From Gnetum montanum (lineage: Eukaryota; Plantae; Gnetophyta): DNA of 64,000 bases. Positions within the stretch are counted from its first letter, which is position 1. Each line of letters starts with the position of its first letter. A model generated the notes under the pieces. The model did not search any database. It was not told the DNA's origin and worked only from the letters and a program-made list of their open reading frames with translations. Position numbers and translations under genes: made by a program. Location: NCBI GenBank assembly GCA_015680685.1, contig MNCI01001825.1:436195-500194 (forward strand), given 5' to 3'. Positions 1-62,051 of the stretch are shown in pieces.

Positions 1-3000
1 TTCATCCATTCACAATGTAGGAGCTGGTCACCGCAATGAGGACAATGAAGACTAACAAGGTGCCTAGACCTGACGAGTAGCCCATAGAGTTCTTTAGGGC
101 ACATAGGGACCTAATGGGTGCAAATATTCTAGACGCCTTCAATCACATGCTCCACTAGCGGGAGGTGAGAAGTGAAATCAACTATTCATGCATTGTCTTA
201 ATCCCCAAGATTCTGGAGCCGTCATCACCCATGCACTTTTGGCTGATTGGGGTTTACAACACTCTCCTCAGACTATTTACAAAGATGCTAGTCCAACGGT
301 TAACATTGCTCATGCCTCAACTTGTCGAGTAGAATCAAGCGGGCTTTGTGAAGGGTCGTTTCCTCCAGGAGCAAGTACTTCTGATGCAAGACATACTACA
401 CTCATTCCGAATGTCTGGGTTCCTTGGGCTCTATGCAAAACTAGACATCATGAAAGCATTCGACATTGTCAATTGGACAACGCTACAAGAAATAATGTTG
501 TGGAAGGGATTTATGCCAGACTTCATGCGTCTGTGTGTGCAGATTCAATCATTAGGATAGTACTTGTTCGACATTGAGGGGAAGTTTTGGGGCTTTGACT
601 CACTTGGGCAAGGCCTGTGTCAAGGCGACCCCTTATCCCCTATGCACTTTATTCTGATAATGGATTTGCTACAAGGGTGCTACAAGATGGAGGGGCTTTG
701 AGATGTGTTAGTGGCAGGGGTGCACTGCATTGCAGAGCACTATGTAGATGACACAATTATCTTTGCACATGTGGCCATCCCTTAGGTAGCGACACTCCAA
801 CAAGCGTTGGGGTAGATGACGGCAGAACTGGGACTTGCAATCAATAAGGCAAAGTTGACACTACACCTAATCAACACAGACACACAAGTGAAGGAATCTA
901 TTAGGTCTTAGGTATCTTGCCTGGGACGACACAGGATTCCTACCTTGGGATGCCAATCTTTGACTGGCATCGGAGGCCAACATGGAATGCACTGCTTCAC
1001 AAGTTAGAAACAAAGATGGGGCATTGGACAAACGACTTTCCTTCAAGAAAGGGTTAATTGATCCTTGCATCATCTGTTCTAATGGCGGTGGTGAGATTTA
1101 TGGCCTCCATGACACAACTACTTGAGGGGGTGACCCAAAAAATTGATCAGATTATAAGGCGCTTTGTTTGGTTGGGGGGGCAAAGGAGGAGGTAAATTGC
1201 ACCTAGTATGTTGGGAAAATACCGCAAAGCCAAAAAATGTAGGAGGAATTGGCATCCTAAATTTCAAGACAAAGGTTCTGCTAGGGATGCAAAGGCTTGT
1301 CAACAAACTGCTAGCACCAGAGGGACAGCCTGCCCAATGGGTTAGCATTATTCGAGGGAAATATCAATTTTGGGAGGTTGGCTCAGGCAGGTCATAGCTT
1401 TGGAGCGTGTTGTGCTAGCACGCTACTCAGATGTAGGAATGTGGTCTACTGGGCATGGCCCCAAAGGGGATTATTTAGCATTGCTTTCCATCAACCCCTA
1501 GGTTCAAGATTATATGGCAAGGCTAACTGCTTGAGAAAGTCAAGGCTTTCCTTTGGTTGGTTGCTAATAGGACATTGCTGGTGAGAGGGTTCTTGCGAAA
1601 GAGAGGTTTGGATATCGACCCTTGATGCCCCCTCTTCATGCAGAGTACAGAAACAATTCATCATTTCATTTCCGAATGCCCATACATGCTTAACACCTGG
1701 CAAGCTGTGGAACTAAGACAACCTTTGAGATTGAATGGGGATAAAAAGGAAACGGTGGTGCTGTGGGCAGCTTGGAACCACTGCAATCACCTGATTTTTA
1801 GGGCAACGGCCACACCGCCATTGGTTGTTGCCACTCATGGGCTGAAGATGTGGGAAGAAGCGACGCATAATATGGGTCTCCTGCAATATCAACGATCGAC
1901 GGTGGTAGAGTTTAGACTTGACAGAAAGTTGTGGATGCTGGTACAACATGCTAAATGGGCAAACTTGCTACCTTGAATTGACAGAGTGCCAAATTTGGCG
2001 AATGATACTTTCTTTGAGAAGTGGGTTAGGGAGGAAACGACATTTCGGGGAAGGAAGATCTTGTTGATGGAGGGGGTTGTACCTAAGGCATTGGTTGTCC
2101 CAACAGACAAGGAGATGTTCCAACCAATGCTACATAGCTACAAGTACATGCATTAGTTCTTCCACGGCCCTACACCAAAAACAACTAGCGACCATGTCCC
2201 TCGAATGGTGCCGCCACCGCTATGGCAGAAGGTGATGCCCTTTGTTGACACGTTTCTTGTGCAATCCAACACTATGTCAAAGTTGTTGGGAGTGCACTTC
2301 ACCTTTATGAACTGCCTCGGGAGGGCATTGCAAGTCAACATACCGTTTTTCCTCTTGATTTCCCTACGAAGACGATGACTTGGAAGGCATGTAGGGCTTA
2401 TCTTGGCACTTTGGCAATATGGGACGGAGGTCCCAACGATGGTCTATCTAACAACTTTATTGGTATACCACTGACGATGATTCCTGGACGATCATCGGGC
2501 CAATGCGTTGGGCTCAAAGTTGCCAAAGGGAGGGGGCAAAGCTGCAAGTTCCTCAACAGCCCCACAGGGGAGGAGTGAACGGGCGCTAATGAGGCCAATG
2601 GAGGTTGGACAAGCATGCAGGGCGACAGAAAATCAAGCTCAAGAGGAGGAGAAACAATTGTTAGGAGGGCTAGAATGTGTATGAAGAGGCCCTCCAAAAG
2701 GCGCAATCGATTTGGTGGCTTGGCACAAGGAAGAATGGCAAGATCTCTCTTGGTGGAACCAACAAAGACGAGAGTTGATAAAGCAATTGTTATGGCACGA
2801 TCCTCCATGGCCAAGGGAGAAAAAGGGCACGCAGTTAGACGCAGAGAATGCACAACAAGAAGCCAAGATTAGGGGGGAACAACACTAGGGGATTAAGTTG
2901 GATGTCATGATCGCAATTAGTCACGGTTGCGGCCCTTTTGGTTGGGTTGCTATCTTGGTGGGGTTTGCTGAGTGGGTAGCCAACTCGACCTTGCACTACG

Positions 3001-3232
3001 TGAATATTTGTGTAGGCATGTGTTTTCTGATCTGTCTGGAAACCCTCCTTTTTCTTTAAGTTTCTGGTTTTTGGGGTTGGGTTGGGTTTTGGATTGTCTA
3101 TGGGCTGACACCTGCAAGGGTGGCTTGTGAGGTGTCAACACATGGGACGGTGGTTGCTAGGTGCCCCTTTTCCTAGTTGTAAACTCTCTTTTATACTATT
3201 AATAAAACCTGGACATTTCTCAAAAAAAAAAA
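1..3232 (+). mobile_element. Degenerate L1-clade LINE (3' part: RT, zf-RVT, extra C-terminal domain, 3'UTR, poly-A); relative of the family at 15466; lies in the SMG8 intron, antisense
   Basis: RT motifs KLDIMKAFD, QGDPLSP, HYVDD; KLHLVCW..KPKNVGGIG; zf-RVT ETIHHFISEC; LWAAWNHCNHLIF; A-tail 3222-3232; many stops and frameshifts. Confidence 0.92.
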
Positions 3233-3724
3233 GCAGCAAATATCCAAGTTGTGTAGCAATTGCACATTGGAAAAATATGAACCGTAAGTTGTGTGCGCTA
3301 AGAATCCACCAAGAACGGACCACATATGAAGTGGTAGTTCGAGAATTCAAGTTGGCACATGATGACATCATTAAAGGTTCAAATGAACCTCGTCTCACAA
3401 ATAAGACCAACTAGGAAAATTTCTCAAAGAAAGAGATCGTGAATACATGAAATCATGATATGAAGCAACTGTTGAAATTGACTCATGAATGACTAATGAA
3501 ATCAAGAATTATAATAACAATGATGTATGATATAAACAAGTTGTTGATCAATTAATAATCTCCCTAATAAGATCCTATAGAGTTGTCCATGAAACATAAA
3601 ACAAAACTCTAACAAAATACAACATATATTATTTCTTCCTCCCTATCAAGACCATGTGTCTACCAATTTAGAAATTGTTGTTGGCATTATGCAGTGGAAC
3701 TGTCAGAATTTAAAAGCTACATTC

Positions 3725-13696: not shown

Positions 13697-15550
13697 AAAG
13701 CGATTCAACTTACATACAATGTTAACAAGGGAACATAATCTAAGAAGCACAAAACTTTGCCACATAAGAGCTAACCTCTAAAGGGTGTTGTATTTTATTG
13801 ACTAGACTAGTGCAATATCTAGATAACTAAGCGCTCAATTGCAAGTCACTTAGTGTGTATGATTAAGTGTAATTAAGATCTATGATTTTGATGTTGTTAT
13901 GGCCATAATAAAATATTATTAAAATATAAAAATTAAGTTTTAATTAAGATAATGCAAAAACTAAGGCCAAGCTACACTAGGCGAGAAGCATTTTTTTTTT
14001 TCGGTTTGTTATACACATCTTGGCCTTACATAATAGTCATTGGGTTACCAAGTGCTTACTTGAAATGGTACACGTTATACTTGAAATGGTACACGTTATA
14101 GTCATTGGGTTAAGAGCACTGATGAGAGTACCAAATGGTACACGTTATACTTGAAACCAATCATATTTATGTCACCATAACTATTATGTGATGAGACATA
14201 AATAATTAACTAAGTACATGTAAAGGAAAAGATCAAGGAAATTAAATTGCAATTAAAGAAAGTATTGAACTAAGCCAAGTGCTACAATGAAGGTAAATCA
14301 AGTTTGATTTATTGTTATTCATCAAAATGTATTCAGGTACATGATCACTTGAATAAGATTGTAGCCCATCAATTTAAATTCACATTGTGGGCAGTTTGAT
14401 GACAAATTCTTACTTCTATAGGAACAAAGTACAAAAGCCTCACTACAATTGTGACCAAATAATGTCATAAATGTGGTGGTGTGCGCATTTATATAGGCAT
14501 TTATTGCCTTTACATTGACACAACTTACCCTATGTTGATGTTAATGCATCAACATTACTACGTTAACACAATCAACTGAAGACTATTCATCGATAATGAT
14601 GTGTAAAAAATACTGAGTTACCATACATTTCAAAAATAGTACTACTAGATCATTTCATAGAATATTCCATACATAAAATAGCAATTATCTGCACTAAAAT
14701 ATATCAAAGATATTTAGTCAAATATTCCATAATAAAAACATTCATTTTGATAATAAAATATTCCATAATATGCACTAGATGTCTTTAGACTTTCATTAAA
14801 CCAACATGAAGTTAAAGAAATCTAGCCTAGTAGCCCTTATACCAAGAATTTCAATTTTAAAGAAAAAGTAAGAATCACATGGCTTCAAATGCATAAGCAC
14901 ATTTAAAATTTAAAACCAAGAAACTAAATGCAACCCATTCTTAAAGGTAAGCATTAATGGTTTTAGTAAACAATTTACAAGTTCTAGTAAAAAATGAAGC
15001 CACCTACATTAATGGTTTTACTTTTTAAATAATTTAAAATTAATTTATTTTTAAAAACCACCACACTTATGAACACCTACACTATAAAGATATATTCTAG
15101 AAAACCAACTTCAAACTAGAAATTTTGAATCGTAATTTGCAAAAGTTTTAACCCATATTCCTTTTGAGTTCTTGGTCATAAAAAAACAAAATAGATATAT
15201 GTTTTAGGAGGTTTTTCTAAATGGAGATGTCCAATTTCCAATTCTAAATGAAGTATATTTTGTGTTGATCATAATGTGCTCTCCTTCCAAAGAATCATAT
15301 TCCATCTTATATAGAAAATTTTAATAGTACTTTTTTGTTTTAAATTCAAATTTTACCTATTTCATCAATATTGTTAACTTAAACTTTAAACCTACATAAC
15401 TATTTCATTTTTGAATTTTAGATATCATGTGTTTTAAAGATTAAAACTTACTACGTTAAGGCATGGAAGCAAACAGGCCCAGTGGGATATCGATTTGGGG
15501 CAGCAACAAACCCTGCGGGAGGTCTACCAACACCATACCTCTGGTCATAC

Positions 15551-18500
15551 ATGAAGGTGTTTAGCTAGAATTGCAGGGGACAGGGTACCCCCTACAAAAG
15601 AAATACCCTGCGCAGAATTGTCCGGGATGAAGATTGTGATATTGTTTGTCTCCAGGAGACCAAGTCGCAGGCAACGAAGTCGCACTTCCTCCAATGGGAA
15701 GGCTGATCCACCCACGCGCACCCCTGCTTGGGTCGAGTCGGTGGACTCGCCATTCTGGCCCGCTACACCATGAATCTCATGGACGCATCGCAGTGGGCCA
15801 TCACCGTCCAACTCCCTTCGCAAGGGGTCTGGCTGACTAATTTTTACGACACTTAGAGTTGGGGGGAGCAGTTGCACGAGTTGACCCGGGTGGCGACACT
15901 GGTCCCAGAACATCGATCGTGGATCGTGGTGGGGGACTTCAACCAACGCCTCCACCCTTGGGAGAAGTCTGGGGGGGCTACCCCCCCTCCACAAGGGGTG
16001 TCAGAATTCCAGAATTTTCTGGCAACCTTCTCCCTGATAGATCTGCCCATCGAGAATTGCCGTTTCACGTGGAGTAATCGAAGGAAGGGCCCGGACCGTG
16101 TCCTCACTCGGATTGATCGGGTTTGCGTTGGCATTGATCTTCTACTCCATTCCTCCATCCATGTGTCGGGGCAGGAAAGGGTGGCTTCAGATCACTGTTC
16201 GCTGGCCTGTTTGATCGGGTCGGATAAACCCAAGGCCCCACGATTGTTTCGTTTCAAAGCTGCTTGGTTAGCCAAGCCGTGGCTGAGGCCGTTGGTGGAG
16301 GAGATCTGGGCAGACTACTGGCCCGACCAGGGGGACCCACGGAACTTCCTTAAGGAAGCCTTGCTTCGACTGAAGTGGGCCATCAAGGCCCTACCAGTGG
16401 ATGCAAAGTTCTCCTTTCGAATAAGCCTGCGGACGCTCCGTGGTCAGCTTGGCCAGATCCAGGCCCGACAAAAAGCAGGAGAGGACCTGCACGCAGAGGA
16501 GCAGCACACATTGCGTCAGCTTTTGTCCCTTGACTTGGAAGAGGAGACATACTGGCGACAACGTTCCTACATCCGCTGGATCAGGGAGGGGGATAGGCAG
16601 ACCAGATTCTTTTTTGCCATGGCCAAAACCTGTGGGGGCTGTCATCCACGTTGTCTTCGCAACCAGGATGGAGAGACTACTGATGATCCATAGCGAATTG
16701 CGCATGAGCTGACGCAATACTGGGGCGGAATCTGGGCCAAGCGCCCCACCAGGCCAATCTCGATTCCTGTGCAGCGAGTGTTGACCGAGCACGACAACGT
16801 TCGGCTGCTGACCCCTTTCTCTTGGCAGGAGCTCACGGCTACGATCAATAGCATGCCAAGGGGAAAAGCACCTGGTCCTAATGGCTGGAGCCTTGATTTT
16901 TTAAAAACATTTCTAGATATTGTGAAACCCAATATGCTAGATGTGTTCAATCTCATGCTGGCCAGGAGACAAGTTCGGAGGAAACTCAATTGCTCCTGCA
17001 TTGTGTGCATTCCGAAGCAGTCTGACGCACACCGCCCGGAACACTTCTACCCCATCGGGGTATGCAATGTACTCATCTGGATCTTCTCTAAGCTGCTGGT
17101 GCATCGGCTTGTACCGCTCATGCCCAGGCTTGTGGGGATCAACCAGGCGGGGTTCGTTCAAGGGCAGGCCATTCAGGACCAGATCCTCCTCTTGCAAGAG
17201 GTGATTTATTCGCTTCGAAATTCGGGCTTCCTCAGACTTTGCCTCAAGCTTGATATCTCTAAGGCTTACGACACGCTCAGCTGAGAGGCATTGCAGTCCA
17301 TTATGTACCTGAAGGGGTTTGATCTGCAGTTCATCCGACTTTGCATTCACATGCAGTCATTGACCGGTTTCTCCTTTGATGTGGGGGGGCGGTTATGGGG
17401 CCTCTCCTCCCTTGGGCGGGGGTTGAGGCAAGGGGACCCACTCTCGCCCCTCCTCTTCATCATCGCCATGGACTTAACGTAGCACTACTGCAGCACATTG
17501 GGGGTGGACGGTTTGAACATTGCCGGAGTAGCATGTCGGGCCGAGCACTATGCAGACGATATGATGTTGCTTAGTAGGGCGACGATCCCGCAGGCACGGT
17601 GCATCAACATTGCTTTGTCCCGCCTGGCGGCTGAATTGGGGCTAGAAATCAATAGAACCAAATCCGCAACCCACTTTATTAATGTGGATGAACAAGTTAA
17701 AAATCGGGTGACACAAGTCTTGAATATCTTGCCAGGGGCATACAGTGACACATATTTGGGCATCCCCCTCTTCAGGTGGGGACGGACCACGACGTGGGGC
17801 CTGCTGCTAGAAAAAATCGAAAGAAAAATGAGCCATTGGACGAATAGATTCCTTAGCCGCAAAGGTCACCTGCTTGTGGCCACTGGAATCCTCATGGCAA
17901 TCGCTCGTTTTGTGGTTGCCGTGGCCACCCCCCCAAACGCGGTCATCAATGCAGTTAACACACTGATCCGTAGCTTCGTTTGGGAGGGGGCAAGGGGGGG
18001 CACAAAATCCATTTGGTCCGTTGGGAGCGTGTGGCGTGCCCCCGAAGCGCGGGTGGCTTGGGCATCATGTCATTCGAGGACGAGTTGATGATGGGACAGC
18101 AACAGTTAGTGCTCTGATTTTCATGCCCGCATAGAGAACCGATCCCATGGATCCGCATCATGAATGCCAAATATCTGCATTGGGATTCAGGAGCACGGGA
18201 TTCTAGGCCTTGGCAGGCGCTGTGCCGACATGCTCGTGTGATGCAGACCTCGGGCTGGGGGGGCCTCGAGCCACAGGCCCTTCTGACGGCCAAATACCCC
18301 CAACTGGACTATTGGTTGAGGATCTAGCAGGGGCGGCTGCCCGAAAAAATAAAAATTTTCCTGTGGCTACACAAGAACGATGCGCTGCCCGTACGGGCCC
18401 TGCTGTGGTGGCGCGAAATTCTAAACAGTGATACGTGTCCTACATGCGGCGCTGCTACTGAAACGGTGCAACACTTCGTGGCTGAGTGCCCTTGCATGCA

Positions 18501-20037
18501 CGCCATGTGATGCACGGCGGCAATGCCCCCCCCCCCTCCGAGGCGCCTCACGGGTGACTCTCAGGCCACGCTACTTTTATGGGTAGCGTGGAAGGCATGG
18601 AATAACGTAGTTTTCCGATAGCAGCAGCGCCCACCTCCGCAGTGGCTAGTCTCCCAGGCTTTCATCGCGTGGAAGGAAATCGAGGTGACGATGAGAATCA
18701 CGCCCACTTTCGAACTGGACTACGTTGCCTTCCAGGAGGACGAGGCGCTTTGGCAGATGGTGGCCCAGTGCGGCTGGTCTAACCCTCTACAGCGGCTGGT
18801 CGGGGATCCAGATCTGGCAGACGACGCGTTTTTCTCCAACTGGGTCAACGACCATACCTTCTTCCGCGGGCATGAAATCTGGATTATAGAATCTTCGATT
18901 ACCAGCTGTCTGGGGGCCCTGATCGCTGGAGAGATCATTTTGCCCTCCACCCGCGGCCTCCAGGATGCTGAAATGTTCTTTGATGGCCCCGTCCCTTGAA
19001 CTAGGAGCCGACAAGTGCCCAGATCTTCCCTGTCGCGCCTCTGGGCCCAGGGCGCAGATCTGGTGGACCGATTCTTCGTCCAGTCTAGCAACGCCTCCAA
19101 GTTGCAAGGCCTACACTTCGCCTTCCTGCGCTGTCTCAAGTTGGGTAGCTAGGTCAACCTCCCTCGCTTCTTTAAGGAGGCCCTTAAGCTCAAGCGTTGC
19201 AACCGCCACTCTGGTTTAATTCTGGCGCTCTGGCAGGGGGTGGAGGGGGGGCAACCCCCCCTTGTCCTCTGCCCCCCCCATGGGGGGTCTCTCCAGAGTG
19301 CCCCCCCTCGACTAGGCCACAAGCTACGGCGATGCTCAGGTGGGTGGGTGATTGGCCCCGGTGGGGTTCCTCCGTCACACGGGGTCGAAGGACCCCACGG
19401 GAGCAACGCTCCCCCGAACGCCCTGACAAACTGACTTCCCCCCCCTCCCTGGAGGAACTGGAATGAGGAGCTTCGGCAGGCCACGCAAAGGGCGGCGGAC
19501 GAAGTCCGAGAAGAATGGGAAGCCAAATGGAATGAAGCCCTCACGCAGGCCCAGGCCGACATTGAAGCCCAGGTCACTGAGCGTGAGCAGAAACAGGTTA
19601 AGCAGCAGGAGCTCATGGCTGACGCTGCCAAGGCCCACCTCATTGACGAAATCAGGGTCCAAGTTCAGGAAGAGTTAACCCAAGAAGAGGAGGCCCAGAG
19701 ACGACGTGAGCAAGCGGAGCAAGAGCGGCTCCAAGAGGAGGAAGACCAGTGATAGAGGTAGCTTGACTGCGCCCACAGGCATAATGCTCGACAATGGCTA
19801 TGGGAGGGGCGATGCCCATACCATATTCTTGGCATCAATTGTGAGAGCTCCTAGGCGGAACTTAGACGACACATCCGCAGAACCTCAGCGCACTACCACC
19901 CTGATGCAGGAGCTTCGCAGGAGGACAGGAGTAGACAAGAGTCGACCATGCAGGGTATCCAATTTCATGGACACGGAGGATCATCGAAACACTTTGGATA
20001 TCCTCCACGAGTTGGAGCACCCCAACTGCACCCGCGC
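15551..20037 (+). pseudogene. Disrupted LINE ORF2 polyprotein including the C-terminal extension
   Basis: Domains collinear but broken by point-mutation stops and small indels; ends in an N gap at 20038. Confidence 0.9.
19813..19999 (+). pseudogene. DnaJ/J-domain coding segment at the 3' end of LINE copy 1
   Basis: CPYHILGINCESS*AELRRHIRRTSAHYHPDAGASQEDRSRQESTMQGIQ/(~10 nt deletion)NFMDTEDHRNTLD; HPD at 19897-19905. Confidence 0.85.
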
Positions 20038-20529
20038 NNNNNNNNNNNNNNNNNNNNNNNNNNNNNNNNNNNNNNNNNNNNNNNNNNNNNNNNNNNNNNN
20101 NNNNNNNNNNNNNNNNNNNNNNNNNNNNNNNNNNNNNNNNNNNNNNNNNNNNNNNNNNNNNNNNNNNNNNNNNNNNNNNNNNNNNNNNNCTCGGAGGGGC
20201 CATTCTTGATGGCCCACCGCTTGTAATCTCTTGTAACATACTTTGAGTTCTTGATTAATATTATCCCGACTACTTTCTCAAAAAAGAAAAAGAAAAAAAA
20301 AGGCATGTTTAATTAGCCAAATATGTAATGTTGAATCTTTGTATGTTACCCTTAAAATTAAAAGATTCTTTAGATTTGTGGAAGTAAATTCATAGATGTA
20401 TGAGTGATTTGAATGATTTACTTTTTAAAAGGTCCTAAAACATTTCACATGGAAAGGTGTCATCTTTATTAATCCAAGAACCTAAAGATTCAATATACAT
20501 GTAGATACAAGCACCGACGGATTTAGAAG

Positions 20530-21294: not shown

Positions 21295-22754
21295 CTGGTG
21301 CACAAAAATACAAAAATAATCAATACAAGATATAAGATGATGATGATGATTTATCATTTATCAATGTGCAGTAATAATTCAATTACAAAAAGTCCATCTC
21401 ATCTCAAAGATCTTAACATTTCTTAACATTTAAACCTTTTCTTATCTTATGATGTTTCAACAAATTTTATCAAAGTTATATCCTCTTCAAATACTATTTG
21501 ATGAGAAACAGTTAATTTTAACAACAGATTTCTGCATTCTCAAATGTCTCTGATGTTTTGATGGAGTACACAGTTGCACCAACCACAAGATCAACCAACG
21601 GTTGGTATTGTAAGAATGAAAAATTTAACATTCCCGTAACCCTGGCTCAATGCCAACAATTTTTCTAGTTTACAGTCCAAGACCAACAATATTGTCAGAT
21701 TGCAACAGCAATATGACAATGGCTATTCTCTTAATCATTTATGTAAGCAGAGTCCTAAGTGCCATCATATATTAGATATCAATACATGCCTTGAAAATAA
21801 TTGATGAAAAGGGAATGTATCCTAACAGTCAATTATTAGACCGACAATAACATGTATATATTGCAGGAGGTGTTCGAACATGAGAAGGTGTTCTTTAAAT
21901 AAGAAAACGAGAAAAATAGCTTTGTTACAGTAAATGAGAACTTGAAAACTTGACCTATTATATGCATCTTATTAAAAAAAAACAATGTCCTAAGCTAAAA
22001 TATCTCAGCATCCTCTTTCCATATAGCACGACGCCCTCTCTTCTAACTTGACTCATTTATAATAATTCTCAATGTTTGCTGTACTAGAGCAAAGTCTGCG
22101 AGATTGTTCTACCAAGTTGGGGCTCTCTCTAAAGTTACAAGTCCAGAACCAAGTTCTTGATGACAATGTTCACATAGGCTCTATTATCATTGAAACACAC
22201 ACACATTACCATTGATTCAGGCATTCTACTTTTGCTTCCCCTTCCTAAAGACAACTAGAAATCCCACATTGACAATTAACCTCGTATCTATGTGGCAATT
22301 AGTGAAAAGCCATTCCATGTGAAGAAAAGCAATAACATGTATCGAAGGGCAAAGGAAAGGAGGCGTATGACATCAGCAATTACGCATTATCAAAATTGTC
22401 CCAATATGAAAGGATAAATTTCTGCAAATTACCTAAGAACTCGCTAACTTTCAACAGCACTTATAATAAGCCAAAAGATATCAAGGTCATTGTATTAGCA
22501 GCAGCAGCGTCAATGGCAACCGGCAGTTTTGCATATCCTGAACTTGAGGTTGCCAAGTTAACCACCAACCTCCTGTGGTTGACATAGACACCATGCCAAG
22601 ACACATTTGAACGATTTTTTTACTAAAAGAATCAAACATGATTGAATGAAACTAAAAGAAAATGCAAAAAACAAACATTTAATGATGTCATTCCATGAAT
22701 TGGTGCATAGGAAAAGTTAAAACAGTTTTATTTTATACAACAAAGGGATTCCAA

Positions 22755-22759
<5 letters not shown>

Positions 22760-22808
<49 letters not shown>
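22760..22808. repeat. (CT)n microsatellite
   Basis: Direct reading. Confidence 0.97.
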
Positions 22809-22813
<5 letters not shown>

Positions 22814-23663
22814 TTTTTCTCTTTTCTGTCCTTCCTAAAAGAAACATCAAAATGAGAGATGTCTTTGGCATTTTTGTCTTCAGCAGCAGAAGAAGTACCA
22901 TTTTCTTTATTTTTATTCTCCTAGAACATGACCCTTAAACTCTATGTTTTTTATTTGCTCGACAGAAACATATAACATATTTTTTTGAATGGCAAAAACA
23001 TTTCACACCACATGAACTGCAGGAAAGATGAATCAAGCATCTCTATTGGTACGGAGAAGTGATCTTTTTACTTGTGTCTAGGTTGATTTAATAGAATTTA
23101 ATGAAGACTACAATGCACCTAGTCATGCTGATACTGCAATTGATTAAGTCATTCTGTGTTATAACCTTTCCACATGTTGCTGTAGATGATGACATCTGGC
23201 TTAATGGATTTGTAAATGCAATTCATGAAAGTTTTTTCCTATCTACAACAACCATTAAAAAACATTATTATAACCTCATTCAATGCCACCAAAGACCTAT
23301 TGCTACTTCTTTTGGATCCTTGATTGTTATAATCTCATTCAATGCCACCAAAGACCTATTGCTACTTCCTTTTGGATCCTTGCTTGTATTTGTATTTTCT
23401 TCTGCCAAAGATTCATCAATCCCAACAAATTTCCCTTCCCCACCAATTTGTTCGATGTTTGAAAGCAATGCATCTAGATAAACATTTTTGCAAAAATTAT
23501 ACGACAACATAGTGCTTTGAAATTCAATTGTGGAATGGAATATAATTATTTGACAATTGCGAACCAAAGAATTTGTCACAATGCAAAATGGGAATTGGAG
23601 AACCATGTTGCATCCCGGATGTTTTTCTTTACTCTTCTACATTGCTTACAATAAAATTCTATT

Positions 23664-23836
23664 CCATCAAATCCAGAATGATGGCGCATTCACATTTCTT
23701 TCTTGCAGGAATCACAACTCTCCCCATCAAATCCAGAATGATGGTTCATTCACATTTCTTTCTTGCAGGAATTACAACTCTTTTCATCAAATCTAGAATG
23801 ATGGTCCATTCACATTTCTTTCTTGCAGAGATCACA
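23664..23836. repeat. 60-bp tandem repeat, about 3 copies, inside Merlin copy A
   Basis: catcaaatc(c/t)agaatgatgg..cattcacatttctttcttgcag recurs with period 60. Confidence 0.9.
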
Positions 23837-24443
23837 CTTTCTTGTTGCAGGCAGTAAACCAAGACATTGATAAAACTGCATACATTTCTCCATGGTCATA
23901 GTAAGCCTAATGAAATCATCCTTGCAAATATAGAGCTGTGATGAGACAGTGCAACAATGTTCTGTTCCTACACAACTGTACTCTGTTCTTGCATCATTTT
24001 GTTGTTAAGAGGAAGAGGCTACTAGAGAAAACAAACAGGAAAACAACATGATGCAAATATGCAAGATAAAAGATAAAGAATGCTACTGCATTTTATTTTA
24101 TAAGTCATCTATATTTCACTTGGTGCTGTTTTAAATATTCCTGATAGCAAATTGCTATAGGTAGCAACAGCATTATTTCAAATTGCTATAGGTAGCAATG
24201 GCAGTATTTCATTCTACCGAAAATCAAAATACAAAGTTAAACTTAGAGTGTCATTACCTTTAGCGAATGTAAAATAAAAATACGAAAAGCACGTCTTTAT
24301 GCATTATAAATGTCCACCAATTAACTACAAGTGGCCAATTAACCACCTGTGCTTAATCTGCCCACCCAAAGTTTAATCTTGTTGTACATGTCCACCAATT
24401 AACCACAGGTGTTTAACTTGACCACCTAAAGTTCAATCTTGCC

Positions 24444-47717: not shown

Positions 47718-50700
47718 TTTTTTTTTTCGAGAAAGAGGTCGGGATTATATTAAAAGAGCTAAAGTATGTTACAAAGATTACATGCGATTACAAGCGGTGG
47801 GCCACATGGGAAGGTCCAACCGAGAGGGGAGGGCCCCCGAACCACAGAAACTGCGAGTGAGACGGTCAAAACAGAGAAANAAGAGTGTTTCGGTGATCCT
47901 CCGTATCCACGAAATTGGCCGCCTGTTGGAGGCCCTGCATAAGCGACTCCCACCTACCCCTGTCCTCTTGCGAAGCCCCGACATTAGGGTGGTACTGCGC
48001 CGAGGTCCGGCGGATGTGCTGCCTGAGCTCCGCCCAGGAGCTCTCGCAGTTAATGCCCAGAATAAAGTATGGGCATCGCCCCTCCCGCAGCCATTGCCAG
48101 GCATTATGCCTATGGGCGCGGTCAAGCTGCTTCTGCCGTTGAGCCTCCTCCTCCTGGAGACGCTCCTGCGCCGCCCGCGCCTCCAGCTCGCGCCGTCTTT
48201 GGTCTGCCGCCTCCTGCGTTAGCTCCTCCCGAACCTGGGCCCTGATTTCGTCGATGAGGCGGGCCCGGGCAGCCTCAGCAAGGAGCTCCTACTGCCTGAC
48301 CCACTCTTGCTCGCACTCCGTGACCTGGGCCTGCGCGAGGGCCTCGTTCCACTTGGCCTCCCACTCTTCCCGCACTTCGTCCATTGCCCGTTGCGTAGCC
48401 TGCTGAAGTTCCTTATCCCAGTTCCTTCGGTCAGACGTCTCGGGCGGGGGGGAAATCGAACTATCAGAACGTTCGGGGGAGCACCTCGTCCGCATGGTCC
48501 TCTGCCCCCACGGAACATGGGAACCCCAACGGGGCCAATTACTCCCCAGCCCAGGCACCGCCTTAGCCAGCGGCCTAGCTGAAGGGGAGCACTCCGAGGA
48601 GACCCCCCGCAGGGGGGCAGCCCCCCTGCCCCCGCCCCCCGCCAAAGCAACAAAATCAGACCAGAGTGGCGGCCGCAGCGTTTGAGCTTAAGGGTCTCTT
48701 TAAAGAAGTGGGGGAGGTTGACCGGGCTACCCAACCTGAGACAACGCAGGAAGGCAAAGTGAAGGCCCTGCAGCTTGGAAGCGTTGCCAGATTGGACGAA
48801 GTAGCGTTCAATCAAATCAGTTCCCCAGGCCCATAAGCACGGCAGAGAAGATCTGGGGACCTGGCGGCTCTGAGTCCGGGGGACGATCCGCGTCCTCCAG
48901 CCCACGGGTAGAGGGCAAGAGGATTTCCCCAGCGATCGGGGCCACCAGACAGCTGGTAATCGAGGAATCAATGACCCAGATTTTGCGCCCGCGGAAGAAG
49001 GTACGGTCATTGACCCAGTTGGAGAAAAACGCGTCATTTGCCAGATCAGGGTCCCCGACCAGCCGCTGTAGAGGCTCTGACCAACCGCACTAGATCACCA
49101 ACTGCCAAAGCGCCTCGTCCACCTGGAACGCGACGCAGTCCGACTCGAAAGTGGGCATAGTTCCCATGGTTACCTTGATTTCTTTCCATGCCGCGACAGC
49201 TTGGGAGACCAAACGCTGTGGAGGGGGGCGCTGCTGCTGCTGGAAAACAACGTTGTTCCGTGCCTTCCACGNAGAAAACGGCGTTGTTCCGTGCCTTCCA
49301 CACTACCCATAAAAGTAGCGTGGCTTGGGAGTCACCCGTGAGGCACCTCGGGGGGGCATAGTCGCCGCGCGCCACGTGGCGCGCATGCAAGGGCACTCCG
49401 CCGCGAAATGCAGCATGGTTTCCACCTCGACACCGCATGCAGGACACGTCGCAGTGCTTAGGATCCCGCGCCGATGCAGCAGGGCCTGTACTGGCAGCAC
49501 ATCGTTTTGCAGGAGCCACAGGAAGAATTTAATTTTTTTGGGCAGGTGTCCCTACCATATCTGCCGCCAGCCGTCCATCCGAGGGTACTTCGTCGTCAGG
49601 AGGGCCCGCAGCTCGAGGCTCCCCCAACCCAAGGTTTGCATTGTGCGTGCGTGCCGGCAGAGCCCCAGCCACGGCCTCGAATCCTACGCCCCCGAAACCC
49701 AAGGCAGATATTTGGCTTTCATGATTCGGATCCAAGGGATCGGTTCTCCCTGGGGGCGTGAAAATCGGAGCAGTAACCGTTGTTGCCCGATCATCAACTC
49801 GTCCTCGAAAGATGTGATACCCAAGCCCCCTACACTTCGGGGGTGCGCTACCTGCTCCCAGCGGACCAGATGAATTCTGCGCCCCCCCTTGCCCCCCTCC
49901 CAAACGAAGGTACGGATGAGAGTATTAACCGCAGAGAAGACCGCGTTCGGAGGGGTGGCCATGGTCGCCACAAACCGCACGATTGCCATGAGGATTCCAG
50001 TGGCCACCAATAGACGCCCTTTGCGACTAAGGAATCTATTTGCCCAATGGCTCATTCTTCTCTTGATTTTTTCGAGCAGCGGGCCCCACGCCGTGGTCCA
50101 TCCCCATCTGAATAGGGGGATGCCCAGATATGTGTCGCTGTACGTGCCTGGCAAGATATTCAGGATGTGTATCGCCCAGTTTTTAACCTCAGCATCCACA
50201 TTAAGGAAGTGGGCGGAGGATTTGGTTCGATTGATTTCCAACCCCACCTCGGCCGCGAGACGGGACAGAGCAATGTTGATGCACCGTGCCTGTGGGACCG
50301 TTGCTCTACTGAGCAACATCATATCGTCTGCATAGTGTTCGGTCCGGCATGCCATGCTGGCAATGTTTAGACCGTCCACCCCCGAGGTGCTGCAGTAATG
50401 CTGCATTAAGTCCATGGCAATGATGAAAAGGAGGGGCGAGAGCGGGTCCCCCTACCTCACCCCCCACCCAGGGGAGGAGAGGCCCCATAAACGCCCCCCC
50501 ACATCAAAGGAGAAGCCGGCCGAGGACTGCATGTGGATGCACAGGCGGATGAACTGCAAATCAAACCCTTTTTGTAACATGATGGACTGCAAGGCCTCCC
50601 AGCTGAGTGTGTCATAAGCCTTGGTGATGTCAAGTTTGAGGCAAAGCCCGGGAAAGCCCGTATTCCGAAGCGAATGAAACACCTCTTGCATGAGGAGGAT

Positions 50701-51240
50701 TTGGTCCTGAATTGCCCATCCTTTCACGAACCCCGCCTGGTTGATCCCCACCAGCTTGGGCATGACCGGCACAAGCCGACTCACCAGCAGTTTGGAGAAG
50801 ATCCTGATAAGAACATTGCAAACCCCAATGGGGCGGAAATGTTCCGGGTGGTGTGCGTCAGACTGCTTTGGGATGCAAACAATGCGGGAGCAGTTGAGTT
50901 CCCTTCGAACCTGTCTCCTGGCCAACATAAGATTGAACGCATCTAGAATATTGGGCCCCACAATATCTATGAACGTTTTAAAAAATTCAAGGCTCCAACC
51001 GTCAAGACCAGGCGCTTTGCCACCGGGCATGCTAGCGATCGTGGCCGTGAGCTCCAACCATGAGAAGGGGGCCAACAGCCGAACGTTGTCATGCTCGCTC
51101 AGCACACGCTGCACGAGAACCGAGATGGGTGTGGTGGCGCGCCTGGCCCAAATCCTGCGCCAGTATTGTGTCAGCTCGTGCGCAATCTATTGTGGATCAT
51201 CAGTAGTTTCGCCGGCCTGATTGTGGAGACAACGGGGATG
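47718..51240 (-). mobile_element. L1-clade LINE copy 2 (RT to J-domain, poly-A), inserted at the end of the copia 5' LTR; its 5' part ends near an assembly join
   Basis: Poly-T 47718-47727; RT KLDITKAYD, HYADD; zf-RVT CPACGVEVETMLHFAAEC; collinear with copy 1. Confidence 0.93.
47881..48075 (-). pseudogene. J-domain segment of LINE copy 2 (HPN variant)
   Basis: CPYFILGINCESSWAELRQHIRRTSAQYHPNVGASQEDRGRWESLMQGLQQAANFVDTEDHRNTL, stop-free and in frame with the coiled coil. Confidence 0.85.
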
Positions 51241-51399
51241 ACATGTGGATGCACAGGCGGATGAACTGCAAATCAAACCCTTTTTGTAACNAATCTGTTG
51301 TGAGATCTAGCATGGTTTTACAATTAGTTGCCAACCTGACACTAACCCTCCTCCTTTCATGTCTGGGTTTGGGAATGGCATTGACAAAGTTAGGGAACT

Positions 51400-55454: not shown

Positions 55455-55672
55455 TTTTTTTTTTTTTTGAAAAATTATAGTACAAGAGTATACAGTTCAA
55501 GGGTCATCAGAGATGGCCCACAGAAAAGAGAAAGGAGGGGGTGGAAAGCCCAATGCAAAAACACCGGCACCCCAACTCGACAAAACTTTGCACCCGGGGG
55601 GGGCGCACCCACACCAAATGACAAAGAAAAAGGGGGCAAAAAATCTCCTTATCGGCGGCGGGGGAGGGGCCC

Positions 55673-55930
55673 TTAGGGGCGAGTCGGCAAATGACGACAG
55701 GCGCAGTGCGGACGTTCAAGTTCATGGAGCAGGTCCAAGGTGTTGCGATGCTCCTCGGTATCCATGAAGTTTGCCGCCTATTGGATACCTTGCATAGCAG
55801 ACTCCCGCCTGCTCCGGTCCGCTCGTGAATCCCCCACGTCCGGATGATAATGCGCTAAGGTTCATCGGATATGTCTCCGGAGCTACCCCCAGGAGCTCTC
55901 ACAGCTGATGCCCAAGATGAGGTATGGGCA
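55673..55930 (-). pseudogene. J-domain and terminal stop of LINE copy 3
   Basis: CPYLILGISCESSWG*LRRHIR*TLAHYHPDVGDSRADRSRRESAMQGIQ*AANFMDTEEHRNTLDLLHELERPHCACRHLPTRP*; HPD at 55838-55846. Confidence 0.85.
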
Positions 55931-58900
55931 TCGNAGCTCATGTTGTCGTATCTGCTCTTGTTCGCGCTCGTGGAACTGGGCTTCTCGCTCTTTCCATTTT
56001 ACCTCCCATTCCCGCCGCTCCGCCTCCCGCGCAACAGTAGCGACTCATTGTTCAGCTTGTTGCAGCTCCTCAGCCCAGTTNGTCAAGCTGGCTTTGTCTC
56101 TACTCCTCCTCCTCCTATAAGCGCTCCTGCTCCGCCCTTTCCACCTCCTCTTGAGCTCTACAGGCTACGTCCTCCTGTCTCAATTCCTCCCGCACCTAGG
56201 CCCGGATCTCGTCAACGAGCTGGGCTCGAGCAGCCTCCACCATGAGCTCATGTTGTCGTATCTGCTCTTGTTCGCGCTCGTGGAACTGGGCTTCTCGCTC
56301 TTTCCATTTTACCTCCCATTCCCGCCGCTCCGCCTCCCGCGCAACAGTAGCGACTCATTGTTCAGCTTGTTGCAGCTCCTCAGCCCAGTTGGAGCGGTCG
56401 CTGGGGGGTCTAGCAAGGGGGGAGCCGTCCTGGTAGCAGGGAGGCATGGGCCTCGTTGGGAACGACATCCCCAAGCGAAGGTTGTTGTTGGCAGAGTCCA
56501 GCGAGTCTCCTAGTTGGGCGAGGCTGGGGGGCAGGGGGGCAGCAAGTGTGACCCCCCGGGGGGGGAGAGGNNNNNNNNNNNNNNNNNNNNNNNNNNNNNN
56601 NNNNNNNNNNNNNNNNNNNNNNNNNNNNNNNNNNNNNNNNNNNNNNNNNNNNNNNNNNNNNNNNNNNNNNNNNNNNNNNNNNNNNNNNNNNNNNNNNNNN
56701 NNNNNNNNNNNNNNNNNNNNNNNNNNNNNNNNNNNNNNNNNNNNNNNNNNNNNNNNNNNNNNNNNNNNNNNNNNNNNNNNNNNNNNNNNNNNNNNNNNNN
56801 NNNNNNNNNNNNNNNNNNNNNNNNNNNNNNNNNNNNNNNNNNNNNNNNNNNNNNNNNNNNNNNNNNNNNNNNNNNNNNNNNNNNNNNNNNNNNNNNNNNN
56901 NNNNNNNNNNNNNNNNNNNNNNNNNNNNNNNNNNNNNNNNNNNNNNNNNNNNNNNNNNNNNNNNNNNNNNNNNNNNNNNNNNNNNNNNNNNNNNNNNNNN
57001 NNNNNNNNNNNNNNNNNNNNNNNNNNNNNNNNNNNNNNNNNNNNNNNNNNNNNNNNNNNNNNNNNNNNNNNNNNNNNNNNNNNNNNNNNNNNNNNNNNNN
57101 NNNNNNNNNNNNNNNNNNNNNNNNNNNNNNNNNNNNNNNNNNNNNNNNNNNNNNNNNNNNNNNNNNNNNNNNNNNNNNNNNNNNNNNNNNNNNNNNNNNN
57201 NNNNNNNNNNNNNNNNNNNNNNNNNNNNNNNNNNNNNNNNNNNNNNNNNNNNNNNNNNNNNNNNNNGGGGGGGGGGGCTGTCCTGCTGGAAAACAATGTG
57301 GTTGCACGCCTTCCAAGTGACCCATAAAAGCATTGACGCCCAAGAGTTGCCTGTCAACTGCCTCGAGGGGGGCACCGCCGCCTCTCGCCAAGTGGCGCGC
57401 ATGCAGGCGCATTCATAAATGAAGTGTGTGATTGTTTCAGGCACGGCACCACAACGAGGACACGTGTCATCCTGCATGATGCCGCGCCTATGCAGGACGA
57501 CGCGTACGGGGAGCGCATCGGACCGTATCAACCATAAAAATATTTTGATTTTTTCGGGGAGCCGCCCGTGCTAGATCTGCTGCCAACCGTCCTCCGGTGA
57601 AAATTTTGCTGTCAGCCGGGCACGCGGCTCGAGGTCCTGCCAACCCTGGGTCAGCATCGTTCGCGCGTGCTGGTAGATCGTCTGCCAGGGCCGCAAGGCA
57701 AGCGTTCCGACGTCCCATTACGTGTACTTACCATTGATGATGCAGGCCCACTGACTCGGCTCCCCGTGCATGCGTGTTAGGCGGTGTAGGAGCCATTGTT
57801 GCCCAAGCATGATTTCATCCTCAAACGTCGTAATGCCCAGCCCCCCGCCTTACAGGGGTGCACNGAGCATGATTTCGTCCTCAAACGTCGTAATGCCCAG
57901 CCCCCCGCCTTACAGGGGTGCACGATGTGGGTCCAATTCACGAGGTGAAGCTTGCCCCCCCCTCTGCCCCCATCCCCCAAAACAAAGCTTCAGACCATCT
58001 TGTTAATCTGTTGGGTAATGGCAATTGGGGGAACGGCAACGGCCGCCACAAAACGTGTGACAACCATGAGAATCCCGATTGCCACAAGGAGACGGCCTTT
58101 GCGCGTAAGAAAGCGATTGGCCCAATGGTTCGTCTGCCTTTCAACCTTCGCCAGGAGTGGCCCCCACGAATTGTTTCGGCCCCATTGGAATAGCAGGATG
58201 CCCAGGTATGTGTCTTTAGTTTTCCCAGGCGAGATGTCTAGGATTTGCACCACCCTGCCTTTTACTTGCGCAACAACATTAATGAAATGTGCCGCAGACT
58301 TAGTGCGGTTGATTTCCAATCCCAACTCCTCTGCTAGTCAGGTCAGGGCCGTGTTAATACATTGTGCTTGTGGGACCACTACCCAGCTAAGCAACATGGT
58401 GTCATTAGCGTAGTGTTCGGCCCAGCAGGTCACCCCAGCGATGTCCAAACCCTCCACCCCGGACGTGCTGCAGTAATGTTGCATGAGGTCCATAGCAATG
58501 ATGAAGAGCAAGGGCGAAAGTGGGTCGCCCTGTCTCAAACCCCTACCAGGGGATGAGAAGCCCCACAGCCGGCCCCCCACATCGAACGAGAAACCGGAGA
58601 AGAATTGGATGTGCATACACAGTTGGATGAAACTTTGATCAAACCCTTTTTGATGCATAATGGTTTGTAAGGCTTCCCAACTGAGCGTATCGTATGCTTT
58701 AGCTATATCAAGCTTGAGACATAGACCGGGGAAGCCCATAGTCCGGAGGGAGTGCAGCACCTCCTGCATGAGGAGAACCTGATCCTGAAGGATCCTACCT
58801 TGCACAAAACCAACCTGATTGATTCCCACCAGCTTGGGCAGAAGGAGCCCGAGCCGGTTGACTAGGAGTTTGGAGAAGATCCTGATAAGGACGTTGCAAA

Positions 58901-61769
58901 CTCCAATGGGACGGAAGTGCTCCAAGCGGTGTGCGTCCAACTGTTTGGGTATGCACACGATTCAAGAGCAATTGATTTCCCGTCGCACTTGTCGCCTGGC
59001 TAGCATGAGGTTGAACACATCCAAGATATTGGGCCCCACAATATCCATAAAACTTTTGAAGAATTCAAGGGACCATCCATCCGGTCTAGGCGCCTTCCCT
59101 CCCAGCATGCTGTTGATAGTGGTAGTCAGTTCCAGCTAGGAAAAAGGGGCCATCAGTCTTCTGTTTGTCTCCTTCGTGGAGCACCTTCTCCACGTGGACC
59201 GAGATGGGTTGAGTAGGCCGCTTGGTCCAAATTTCCCCCCAGTATTGTGACAACTCATTGGCGATCCCCTGCGAGTCGTTGATGACATCATCGGTCTGGG
59301 TTCTCAAGCAACGGGCGTGGTTCTCCCCTCGAGTTTTGGCCATGGCAAAGAAGAATTTTGTCTGTCTGTCCCCTTCTCGGAGCCATCTGACCCGGGAGCG
59401 CTGCCGCCAATACGTTTCCTCCTCCAGGTCAAGGTGCTAGAGTTGACGTAGGAGACGCAGTTCCTCCAGATGCAAGTCCTCCCCTGTCTCCTGCCAGCCC
59501 TGGATTTGACCGAGCTGATCCCAAACCACCCTTTGACTAGATCTAAAGGAAAATTTCTCCTCCACTGGGAGAGCCCGGANAAGCTGATCCCAAACCACCC
59601 TTTGACTAGATCTAAAGGAAAATTTCTCCTCCACTGGGAGAGCCCGGATGGCCCACTTTAGGCGGAGCAGGGCCTCTTTGAGGAAATTTCGGGGGTCAAC
59701 ATGGTCAGGCCGATAATCAACCCAAATATCCTCAACCAAAGGCCGTAACCATGGTTTGGAGAGCCATGTGGCCTCGAAATGAAAGGGGCGTGGGGCCCAG
59801 GGTTTATCTGGTCCGAGCGAACAAACCAACGAGCGATGATCGGAGGTGACTTTTTCTTGTCCCATCACGTGCACAGTGGTGCGGAGGAGGAGGTCGGAGC
59901 TGACACAGACCCGATCGATGCGGGAGAGAATACGATTTGAACCTTTTCATCGGTTGCTCCAAGTGAACTGGCAGTTTTCAATGGGTAAGTCCACTAGGGA
60001 GTGAGTGGCCAGGAAGTCCAAGAAAGCCTGTGCACCCGAAGGCGGGGGGGGGGGGGGGGCNTGACCAACTTCTACGGGGCACAGGCTTGGGAGCTGAGGT
60101 TGTAAGAGTTGAACCGGGTGGCGACGTTGGTGCCAAACCACCATTCCTGGATAGTGGTGGGTGACTTCAACCAACATCTACACCCGTGGGAGAAGTCTGG
60201 GGGNNNNNNNNNNNNNNNNNNNNNNNNNNNNNNNNNNNNNNNNNNNNNNNNNNNNNNNNNNNNNNNNNNNNNNNNNNNNNNNNNNNNNNNNNNNNNNNNN
60301 NNNNNNNNNNNNNNNNNNNNNNNNNNNNNNNNNNNNNNNNNNNNNNNNNNNNNNNNNNNNNNNNNNNNNNNNNNNNNNNNNNNNNNNNNNNNNNNNNNNN
60401 NNNNNNNNCTGGAGGCAAACGATGTCACAGTTTTCTTCTTTAACAATACGACGCAGGGTATTTCTTTTGTAGGGGGTACCCTGTCCCCTGCAATTCCAGT
60501 TGAAAACCTTCATGTATGACTAGAGGTACGACGTTGGTAGACCTCCCGAAGGGTCTGTTGCTGCCCCAAGTCGATATCCCTCTAGGCCTGTTTGCTCCTG
60601 GATCTGATCTCGGTCGGTCGGCCTAGGCGGCCCTCGCCGTCCTGCACCACTGGGCTACACCTGGCCTCCTCGACAAGGGACTCCTACGCCTAGCGCCGTT
60701 GGGTTCAGGTGCTCCCCTGAACCACGTTAACCCATTCCCCCAAAGGGGGGAGCACAGGTCCTGGTTCTGTAGTGTTCGGTTGGGCTGTGGGTGACCGGGG
60801 GGAGGCCNNNNNNNNNNNNNNNNNNNNNNNNNNAGCAGGGGCTTTGCTATTGCGTGGGAGGGGCTTTGCGAGTGGGGGGGGGCAAGGTAGAGGGGGGCGA
60901 GGTAGGGGAGCAGGGGGGTTACTTCGGGCGGGGGGGTCGGACGGGGGGCGCAAATGTCCTTTGCGTCCCATGGTAACCCAGTTGCCCCCCTTGAACAACT
61001 GTCGTGCTAGGGCTCTCGGCCTCACCTTGCGAAATCGACATTATGCTTCGAGGTGTCTGGGTTTCCCGCAACACCCGCACCCATCAGGTCTACTCACTTG
61101 GCTGTTCGTGCCACGCGTCGGGGTAGGATCCACACCCAGGTTTTCGAAAGTCACTTGGAGGGTTTCCTCCCCCCCTAGGGAGTTCCAACAGTACCTCCCG
61201 GACGAGGTCGGTCTCCGACAGACTACGCCAGACGCAGAAGCATGCGAAGCCCATTCCCTCCATCGATCGCATGACGCGGTCGAAGGCAATGAAGTCACCG
61301 AAAAACCCCACAACCTCCGTCAAGAACTCAAGGTTCCAGAGTTCCTAGGGAATGCTAGCCACCCTCACCCAGACCGGGGCCCAGGTGAACAAGTCGGGCT
61401 CTCGGTGGGCCCTGGGGTGCCAAGGGGTCAAGGCGAGCCCCCGAGCGCCGTAGAACCACGGGCCACCGAGCAACACAGAGTCCCTGGCCTGCAAGGAATG
61501 GAGAACAAAGAGGAGCAGGTCCTCGGAAAGGCTCCGAACATCGACGTCACCCACTTTTCATTGCTCCTTCGCCCACTGGCGGATGAGGTCCAGTCGCGGG
61601 TGGGCCCCTCGAGAGATGAAGCGGCCAATGAGGCTCCTCTCCATAGTGTGGACGCCCTCGAACGGGGGGTGGTGGACCTGCAGCCGCAATGTGTGGTCAC
61701 TGCGGGAGTGGGCCTCGATGGCGCTACCGGGTTTCTCAGCCCCCAACCCATTGGGTCCATCCCCAGCAG

Positions 61770-62051
61770 AAGAGGTTACTGCAGTTGCTGCGTTGGTTGC
61801 CGCTCCAGCAGTTGTTGTTGCTCCTGCTGCTGCTCCGGTTGCTGCTGCTACTGCTCCTGCCGTTGCTGCTGCACTGACGGCTGCTACTGCTTCGGCTGTT
61901 TTCGCTACTGTTGTTGCTGCTGCTGCTGCTACGCCTATTGCTGCTGTTGCGCCTGTTGCGGTCGACATTGCTGCTGCGCCTGTTGCTGTTGTTGGACCTG
62001 TTGCGGTCGACATTGCTGCTACGCCTATTGCTGCTATTACGCCTATTGCGC
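61770..62051 (-). repeat. GCA-rich low-complexity repeat at the 5' end of copy 3, encoding an Ala/Thr-rich ORF1 N-terminus
   Basis: Repeated gcagcaatgtcgaccgcaacagg and gcagcaataggcgta units; ORF 61558-62013 runs into DUF4283. Confidence 0.8.

Follow-up and report, generated by a model that had tools for sequence, protein, structure and literature searches.

LINE copies in the window and their parts

The window, that is, the whole 64-kb stretch of DNA analysed here, is plant nuclear DNA with several GC-rich islands, and at the 3' end of one such island lies a sequence encoding a J-domain. This J-domain forms the 3' end of an L1-clade LINE, and the J-bearing element occurs three times in the window (copies 1–3). 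The order of its parts is endonuclease, reverse transcriptase (RT), zinc finger, extension domain, coiled coil, J, poly(A) and target-site duplication. A related element (copy 4) lies at the left end of the window, and a further LINE, on a contig named L001, was compared with them. The features are as follows.

15458..15465 (+): left target-site duplication of copy 1 (AAGGCATG), with an identical 8-mer at 20300-20307 directly behind the poly(A)
15466..20299 (+): LINE copy 1, decayed and 5'-truncated just upstream of ORF2, delimited by homology to copies 2 and 3
15551..18501 (+): ORF2 core of copy 1, with stops and a 1-nt frameshift near 17986 (indel map)
~15569-16195 (+): AP endonuclease of copy 1 (PF03372, E 7.8e-13)
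~17009-17701 (+): RT of copy 1 (PF00078, E 4.9e-20)
~18292-18501 (+): zf-RVT of copy 1 (PF13966, E 2.9e-10)
18562..19242 (+): C-terminal extension domain of ORF2, ~225 aa, common to copies 1, 2, 4 and L001 (alignments)
19243..19452 (+): linker rich in G/C runs, probable overlap of ORF2 and the J-bearing frame
19453..19809 (+): E/Q/R-rich predicted coiled coil, in frame with J (dN/dS 0.10)
19810..20005 (+): J-domain of copy 1, with HPD and one stop (PF00226)
20006..20037 (+): short C-terminal tail containing His and Cys, matching copy 3 and cut by an assembly gap (20038-20189)
20190..20299 (+): 3' UTR and poly(A) tail of copy 1, from a comparison of the 3' ends of copies 1–4 and L001
about 47727..51290 (-): LINE copy 2, 5'-truncated, from RT to J (HPN), with coil and J at -1 to the extension domain
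55457..62051 (-): LINE copy 3, apparently full length, with ORF1 (DUF4283), ORF2, coil and J (HPD)
1..3235 (+): LINE copy 4, related, with the extension domain kept, another 3' module and no recognisable J

Copy 1 has a GC content of 0.54-0.58 against ~0.3 in its flanks, and the 8-mer of its duplication is found two further times within 15-21 kb. Copy 3 carries a DUF4283 ORF1 (PF14111, E 1.5e-18) and is bounded by a 12-bp target-site duplication at 55445 and 62052, the end of its ORF2 being hidden by a gap (56571-57266). No convincing target-site duplication was found for copy 2 or L001. The RTs of copies 1–3 are 74-83% identical (74% between copies 1 and 3), which indicates that these copies stem from different parent elements, and the RT of copy 4 is 48-51% identical to them. 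No intact copy of the element was found, copies 1–3 all being dead. Single Ns at 47880, 49272, 51291, 55934, 56081, 57864 and 59580 appear to be joints of the assembly, most of them next to exact duplications of 31-146 nt in the local sequence, and they break copies 2 and 3 artificially. Additionally, a short-period repeat rich in Ala and Thr makes up the 5' part of the copy 3 ORF1 region (61780-62050, -).

Between LINE copies 4 and 1 lies a host gene with long exons that resembles SMG8, a nonsense-mediated decay factor (6726-10830, -; PF10220). Two older LINE remnants of other families, with RTs ~30% identical, are located at ~29900-33000 (+) and 54373-54952 (+), and neither the extension domain nor a J was detected in them. 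The right end of the window (63685-64000, +) holds the start of another ORF1, which is 47% identical to that of copy 3, runs off the window and probably belongs to a further member of the J-LINE clade.

A divergent J-domain under purifying selection

The initial annotation, made from the sequence of copy 1, had proposed a J-domain with an intact HPD motif hidden in a stop-riddled frame. The J peptide is indeed present as given, in frame +1 from 19810, and its HPD is intact, as it is in copy 3. One stop (TAG, 19852-19854) lies inside the J of copy 1, where copy 2 has TGG, and three more lie just upstream, at 19750, 19753 and 19759. Copy 2 holds the only stop-free J in the window and carries HPN at the motif. 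A deletion of ~10 nt relative to copies 2 and 3 had also been described for the last helix; it is present, but its size is 11 nt, and from its position at 19959 it puts the last helix (helix IV) of the copy 1 J in frame +2. Since contigs with loose ends at 19959 carry the missing piece (11, 20, 11 and 13 contigs in four DNA runs), this deletion is not the family form.

Against the Pfam DnaJ profile (PF00226), the copy 1 J (19810-19959, stop read as X) reaches the curated cut-off with 28.4 bits against 27.8 (E 1.7e-6), over profile positions 2-39 only, and copies 2 and 3 score 23.4 and 23.6 bits, under the 27.8 cut-off, over almost the whole profile (positions 2-60 and 2-63, respectively). The best three PDB sequence matches are weak (E 0.03-0.04) and are all DnaJ J-domains, and in helix II the basic residues line up with their counterparts in Thermus DnaJ2. 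The AlphaFold model of copy 2, with a pLDDT of 69, has predicted helices at 40-44 and 52-64 and one fused helix at 74-102, and the last 35 residues of the coil are modelled as a long helix. The top Foldseek rows for this predicted model are J-domains, with a probability of up to 0.97 but an E of 0.11 or worse, and a wide structure search with VIA-align returned generic helical bundles only (best Z 6.1). The DnaJ consensus had been read across all four helices; helices I-II and the HPD loop match it strongly, and helices III-IV weakly. With the curated cut-off reached, J-domains as the top sequence and fold matches, and purifying selection in the J frame only, the sequence in the window is a real but divergent J-domain.

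The selection was assessed by simple pairwise counts on 46-412 codons, in which the pN/pS of the J core is 0.18, 0.13 and 0.19 for the three copy pairs (Fisher p 1.3e-7, 4.8e-14 and 1.7e-10), and six off-frame comparisons give 0.66-2.18. Specifically, the corrected dN/dS between copies 1 and 2 is 0.09 for J, 0.10 for the coil, 0.18 for RT and 0.29 for the zinc-finger region, with 0.17 and 0.20 for the extension domain, and the coil read in the other two frames gives 0.99 and 1.61 for the same pair. The linker, with a dN/dS of 0.56 and 0.51 in two frames, is not informative. Coil and J have a dS of 1.1, above the 0.52 of RT. During the active life of the parent elements, coil and J were coding sequence under constraint, and purifying selection acted in their own frame only.

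The J-domain counts as cargo of the element because it lies between ORF2 and poly(A), inside the target-site duplications, and has been amplified with the element; that it is LINE cargo under selection is very likely. A functionless host DnaJ fragment, caught by 3' transduction or template switching, would agree with the fact that every copy seen is a pseudogene and with the J of L001, which is unlike the window J, so that separate captures are possible. Against such a passenger, which we regard as very improbable, stand the strong purifying selection seen across lineages in the one frame of J and coil, at a pS between copies of 0.56-0.80, and a J in the same position in a family with ~40% RT identity. 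The initial annotation is incomplete: it does not mention that the J is carried at the 3' end of an L1-clade LINE and joined to an equally constrained coiled coil, in a layout that recurs in a distant LINE.

Contigs matching 18300-20037 at 80% likeness number 2833, 3845, 3957 and 1967 in the DNA runs of four organisms, and the summed depth over the J bins is 350-4060 against 3-13 for the single long pieces listed; these figures show a high-copy family and are not a copy count. HPD is the majority form in this family: with copy 2 as reference, it is found at the HPN site in 63 of 64 reads of the RNA run X24, in 3 of 3 reads of X23, and in 1376 of 1408 of the contig depth in the DNA run X7. Family members are transcribed, possibly from promoters of their own, although none of the listed datasets that contain the stretch was recorded as RNA. 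One quarter of X24, an oligo-dT/poly(A) RNA run, gave 578 reads on copy 2, on both strands, and X21 and X23 gave 17 and 10 reads, mostly in LINE sense and near the 3' end. The X24 reads may be passive read-through transcripts, because they match both strands and not one of them reaches 99% identity to copy 2. The start of the His/Cys tail is carried by loose ends of RNA reads aligned to copy 2.

A conserved HPD and a basic helix II mark those J-domains that stimulate Hsp70, and J-domain and Hsp70 are a textbook pair. To judge from these residues, the J of the element is likely to act through Hsp70. A J fold without remaining Hsp70 activity, reduced to a module for protein binding or for the targeting of insertion, would be in line with the divergence of helices II-IV from canonical J-domains, with YLD in L001 and HPN in copy 2, and with the other tail that copy 4 has instead. 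HPD is kept, however, in copies 1 and 3, whose RTs are 74% identical, and in nearly all reads, and the basic helix II residues are retained; we consider such a loss quite unlikely.

Reading frame of the coil and J-domain

Copy 1 reads without a frameshift from zf-RVT to J, interrupted by stops only. Relative to copy 2 it is without 11 nt at 19449, which makes it look like an in-frame fusion of ORF2 and J. In copy 2, coil and J lie directly at -1 relative to ORF2, and a PP-SDR-NW junction motif is common to copies 2 and 3 and absent from copy 1. Among the reads and contigs on copy 2, the sole indel at a share of at least 15% is an in-frame 18-mer, although RNA reads cover the linker thinly. The copy 2 junction (48397-48539) is crossed gap-free by one contig and with two gap letters by another. 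No splice joint over the ORF2/J junction was found in the RNA reads, at their low depth there. The fusion of ORF2 and J, which was the first reading from copy 1 alone, was downgraded because of the 11 nt missing from copy 1 and because copy 2 and the reads are at -1. The alignments point to a third frame at -1 for coil and J, rather than an in-frame fusion, and we hold this to be quite probable.

The competing explanation is that coil and J are a C-terminal extension of ORF2, forming an RT-J polyprotein, and that the -1 offsets are frameshifts of decay. The continuity of copy 1, where only stops interrupt the frame, would be expected under this explanation. So would one high-depth contig on copy 1, in which 9 inserted, frame-keeping letters are listed at the junction among the changes at a share of at least 30%, and so would the lack of an ATG common to the copies ahead of the coil. 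Moreover, LINE ORF2 C-termini have acquired extra domains elsewhere, according to the available parts of PMC4686597. Against it stand copy 2 at -1, with no frame-changing indel at a share of at least 15% in its reads and contigs, copy 3, with the PP-SDR-NW motif like copy 2 and unlike copy 1, and L001, which is also at -1. A polyprotein is rather unlikely on this evidence.

The junctions were further searched for signals by which a -1 frame could be entered. Slippery heptamers occur in copy 1 (G or C runs) and in L001 (AAAAAAT); none is present in copy 2, hence none is common to all copies. The folding z-scores of the junctions range from -1.87 to 0.45, none of them clearly significant, and the hairpins are no better than shuffles. 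In L001 (5881-5960), AAAAAAT lies in the ORF2 frame at the opening of the -1 frame, with a predicted stem-loop beginning 4 nt further on. Read at -1, this decayed copy has a stop directly behind the heptamer, and the z of the fold, -0.55, is not significant; AAAAAAT is at most a candidate frameshift site. Even with a programmed -1 frameshift, some fusion protein would be made, at a low level. AUG-independent reinitiation is known for the ORF2 of mammalian L1.

A distant relative and the proposed role of the J-domain

A phmmer search over 1.84 billion representative proteins gave 3 matches, namely P0001, which matches the extension domain, and two unrelated J proteins. P0001, a fragment of 86 aa, is the only relative of the extension domain among these 1.84 billion proteins, and its contig, L001, is one of the 121 candidate stretches in a metagenome scan. 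L001 is a decayed LINE with 34% GC, whose RT is 36-41% identical to those of the window elements and which has no DNA similarity to the window at E 0.01. Its ORF1 is a DUF4283 protein (E 5.7e-19) and its ORF2 ends in the extension domain (~5200-5870). Behind the extension runs a -1 frame of 657 codons, which contains 9 stops where the other frames have 37 and 76; at its end is a full J (PF00226, 36.2 bits, E 6.6e-9), closely followed by the 3' UTR and poly(A). This J, a single copy, has YLD in place of HPD, which would be explained by decay through three C-to-T changes.

Copies 1–4 and L001 form one clade in RT trees, with an SH-like value of 1.0 among 117 rows (the 5 elements and the 112 of 120 matches with at least 280 aligned residues) and 100/100 among 35 rows (the 5 elements and 30 of those matches), with midpoint rooting; the reference rows of both trees are database matches rather than named subclade references. 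The RT of the window LINE is at most 37.5% identical to any of the 112 database relatives compared. Every RT relative that bears a species name is a plant protein. In branching order copy 4 falls between L001 and copies 1–3, and its tail has no Pfam family in any of the three frames and no match to a J profile built from the window. Within 2400-3235, its ORF2 frame encodes a charged, coil-like part and then a hydrophobic one. The slot behind the extension domain may be a swappable cargo position.

The J of L001 scores -1 bit against the window J profile, to which the two unrelated J proteins score 14-17 bits, and hhalign gives the two J types a probability of 6.6%. By these scores the two types appear no closer to each other than to unrelated J proteins, and either one old gain with loss or two captures at the same place would account for them. 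PF00226 was found in 0 of 120 LINE RT relatives among the matches listed (412-1313 aa only). This, together with copy 4, which is without J, indicates that J is not needed for retrotransposition in general.

The extension domain (18562-19242, and 1734-2420 in copy 4) is the best marker for further clade members, and 18562-19242 matches no Pfam family at E up to 1. Its identification as an RNase H was considered and found unsupported, as it has no Pfam family and its profile gives no E below 0.007 among 120 LINE proteins, including carriers of PF13456; its structural model, with a pLDDT of 35, is unusable, and a very degenerate RNase H fold is still compatible. Word-based protein searches, which are weak, gave no relatives of the 3' part of the element among 5272 proteins of 817-2330 aa and 599 of 111-356 aa. 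Likewise, none of 24 candidate stretches was a relative in a metagenome scan with the J alignment, and none of 69 and 30 in the viral and prokaryote collections, respectively, with the extension alignment.

By the usual description, LINE-1-type elements have two ORFs and rely on borrowed host factors. A module retained by a selfish element must have benefited that element, and the simplest client would be the element's own particle, since a long multi-domain RT must fold and bind its RNA. As the best explanation as a whole, we propose, with evenly balanced confidence, that the J cargo recruits host Hsp70 to the element's own RT/RNA particle; that this particle is the client is plausible by analogy, and we hold it no more firmly than that. 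The coil-J frame, which most likely takes in the His/Cys tail as well, would be read from the LINE RNA itself, by -1 frameshift or AUG-independent reinitiation, and the coiled coil would tether J to ORF1p or ORF2p, or to itself. Helix II and HPD would then trigger ATP hydrolysis by Hsp70, which would fold or activate the long ORF2 protein, as Hsp70 and Hsp40 do for the hepadnavirus RT. According to the available parts of PMC2094093, the hepadnavirus P protein, an RT, strictly needs chaperone activation, for which the Hsp70 system alone suffices, and needs that system to bind its RNA template. The likeness to the LINE RT is one of analogy, and the hepadnavirus uses host Hsp40 and encodes none, whereas the window LINE encodes a J.

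In the main alternative for its function, the LINE J would keep the element transcribed by competing for Hsp70 with chromatin J proteins of the host, SILENZIO being one, or by mimicking them. In Arabidopsis, SILENZIO, MBD5/6 and HSP70 silence methylated transposons, and the transposon-encoded VANC21 is a known anti-silencer, as stated in the accessible parts of PMC8616336 and PMC10651127. The family is high-copy and yields poly(A) RNA reads, and a separate frame fits a trans-acting factor. Pfam searches of the third frame, however, yielded no DNA- or methyl-binding domain, and copy 1 was silenced: its differences are mostly A-for-G and T-for-C (112 of 188 listed places, run X1), an excess as in methylation decay. 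We hold this counter-silencing role to be rather unlikely, and the systems it is modelled on differ from the LINE. In the description of the available parts of PMC8616336, MBD5/6-SLN-HSP70 is a J-protein/HSP70 action at transposons but a host silencer, and VANC21 is a transposon-encoded accessory protein but that of a DNA transposon and not described as a J protein.

Recruitment of Hsp70 to the element's own particle can be set beside other parasites. The J of polyomavirus T-antigen is parasite-encoded and borrows host Hsp70. It belongs to a DNA virus and is N-terminal in a helicase, whereas the window J lies at the 3' end of a LINE. T-antigen J-domains (PDB 1faf, 1gh6 and 2pf4) gave weak Foldseek rows with 13-19% identity and a probability of 0.16 or less, and hence no sign of descent.

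Among LINEs, Celine of poplar, in the accessible parts of PMC11288735, shares a DUF4283 ORF1, an ORF2 with endonuclease and RT, a 3' UTR, poly(A) and a target-site duplication. Compared with such plant L1-clade LINEs, the window LINE adds the ~225-aa ORF2 extension and the coil-J frame before the poly(A). For a foreign domain that has become a fixed part of a non-LTR element, at the 3' end of its coding region, there are precedents. According to the available parts of the sources, plant Ta11-type and oomycete L1 elements have an RNase H at the 3' end, archaeal-like in plant Ta11 (PMC5348765), and insect R1/TRAS LINEs have a viral SF1 helicase as C-terminal domain (PMC4686597, PMC6338049). The cargo of the window LINE differs in being a co-chaperone module, not a nucleic-acid enzyme, and most likely in having its own -1 frame. 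The RNase H domain behind the zinc finger, a trait of Ta11-type L1, was not encountered in the window LINE by Pfam.

A LINE-encoded J-domain is likely, though not certainly, novel. Full-text literature, judged by titles and the starts of abstracts, gave no LINE- or retrotransposon-encoded J-domain, in a scope that excludes Repbase and subscription papers. The term 'DnaJ' has 0 occurrences in the available text of PMC5348765 and PMC6338049, and 0 in the text and two of the three supplements of the eukaryote-wide L1 survey PMC5203782; its mentions in PMC12924346 and PMC9940879 are unrelated to a LINE-borne J.

We lean slightly towards the reading that an old, undescribed plant L1 clade encodes its own Hsp70 co-chaperone in a third, -1 frame, by one gain with losses or by two captures, and that this co-chaperone activates RT or counters J-protein silencing, as a retrotransposon counterpart of viral J-domains. 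If so, Hsp70 recruitment would be worth a gene to a retrotransposon, and a chaperone need of the LINE RT, as in the hepadnavirus RT, would become directly testable, because HPD can be mutated in cis. If the counter-silencing role applied instead, the J would be a retrotransposon anti-silencer against a J-protein/HSP70 silencing pathway. For annotation, hundreds of decayed 'DnaJ genes' in such genomes would be transposon ends.

Elsewhere in the 64-kb window, no Rfam families were found, and 22603-25816 is a 3.2-kb imperfect inverted repeat with arms of 70-86% and internal 60-nt tandem units, which is either a fold-back element or an old inversion.
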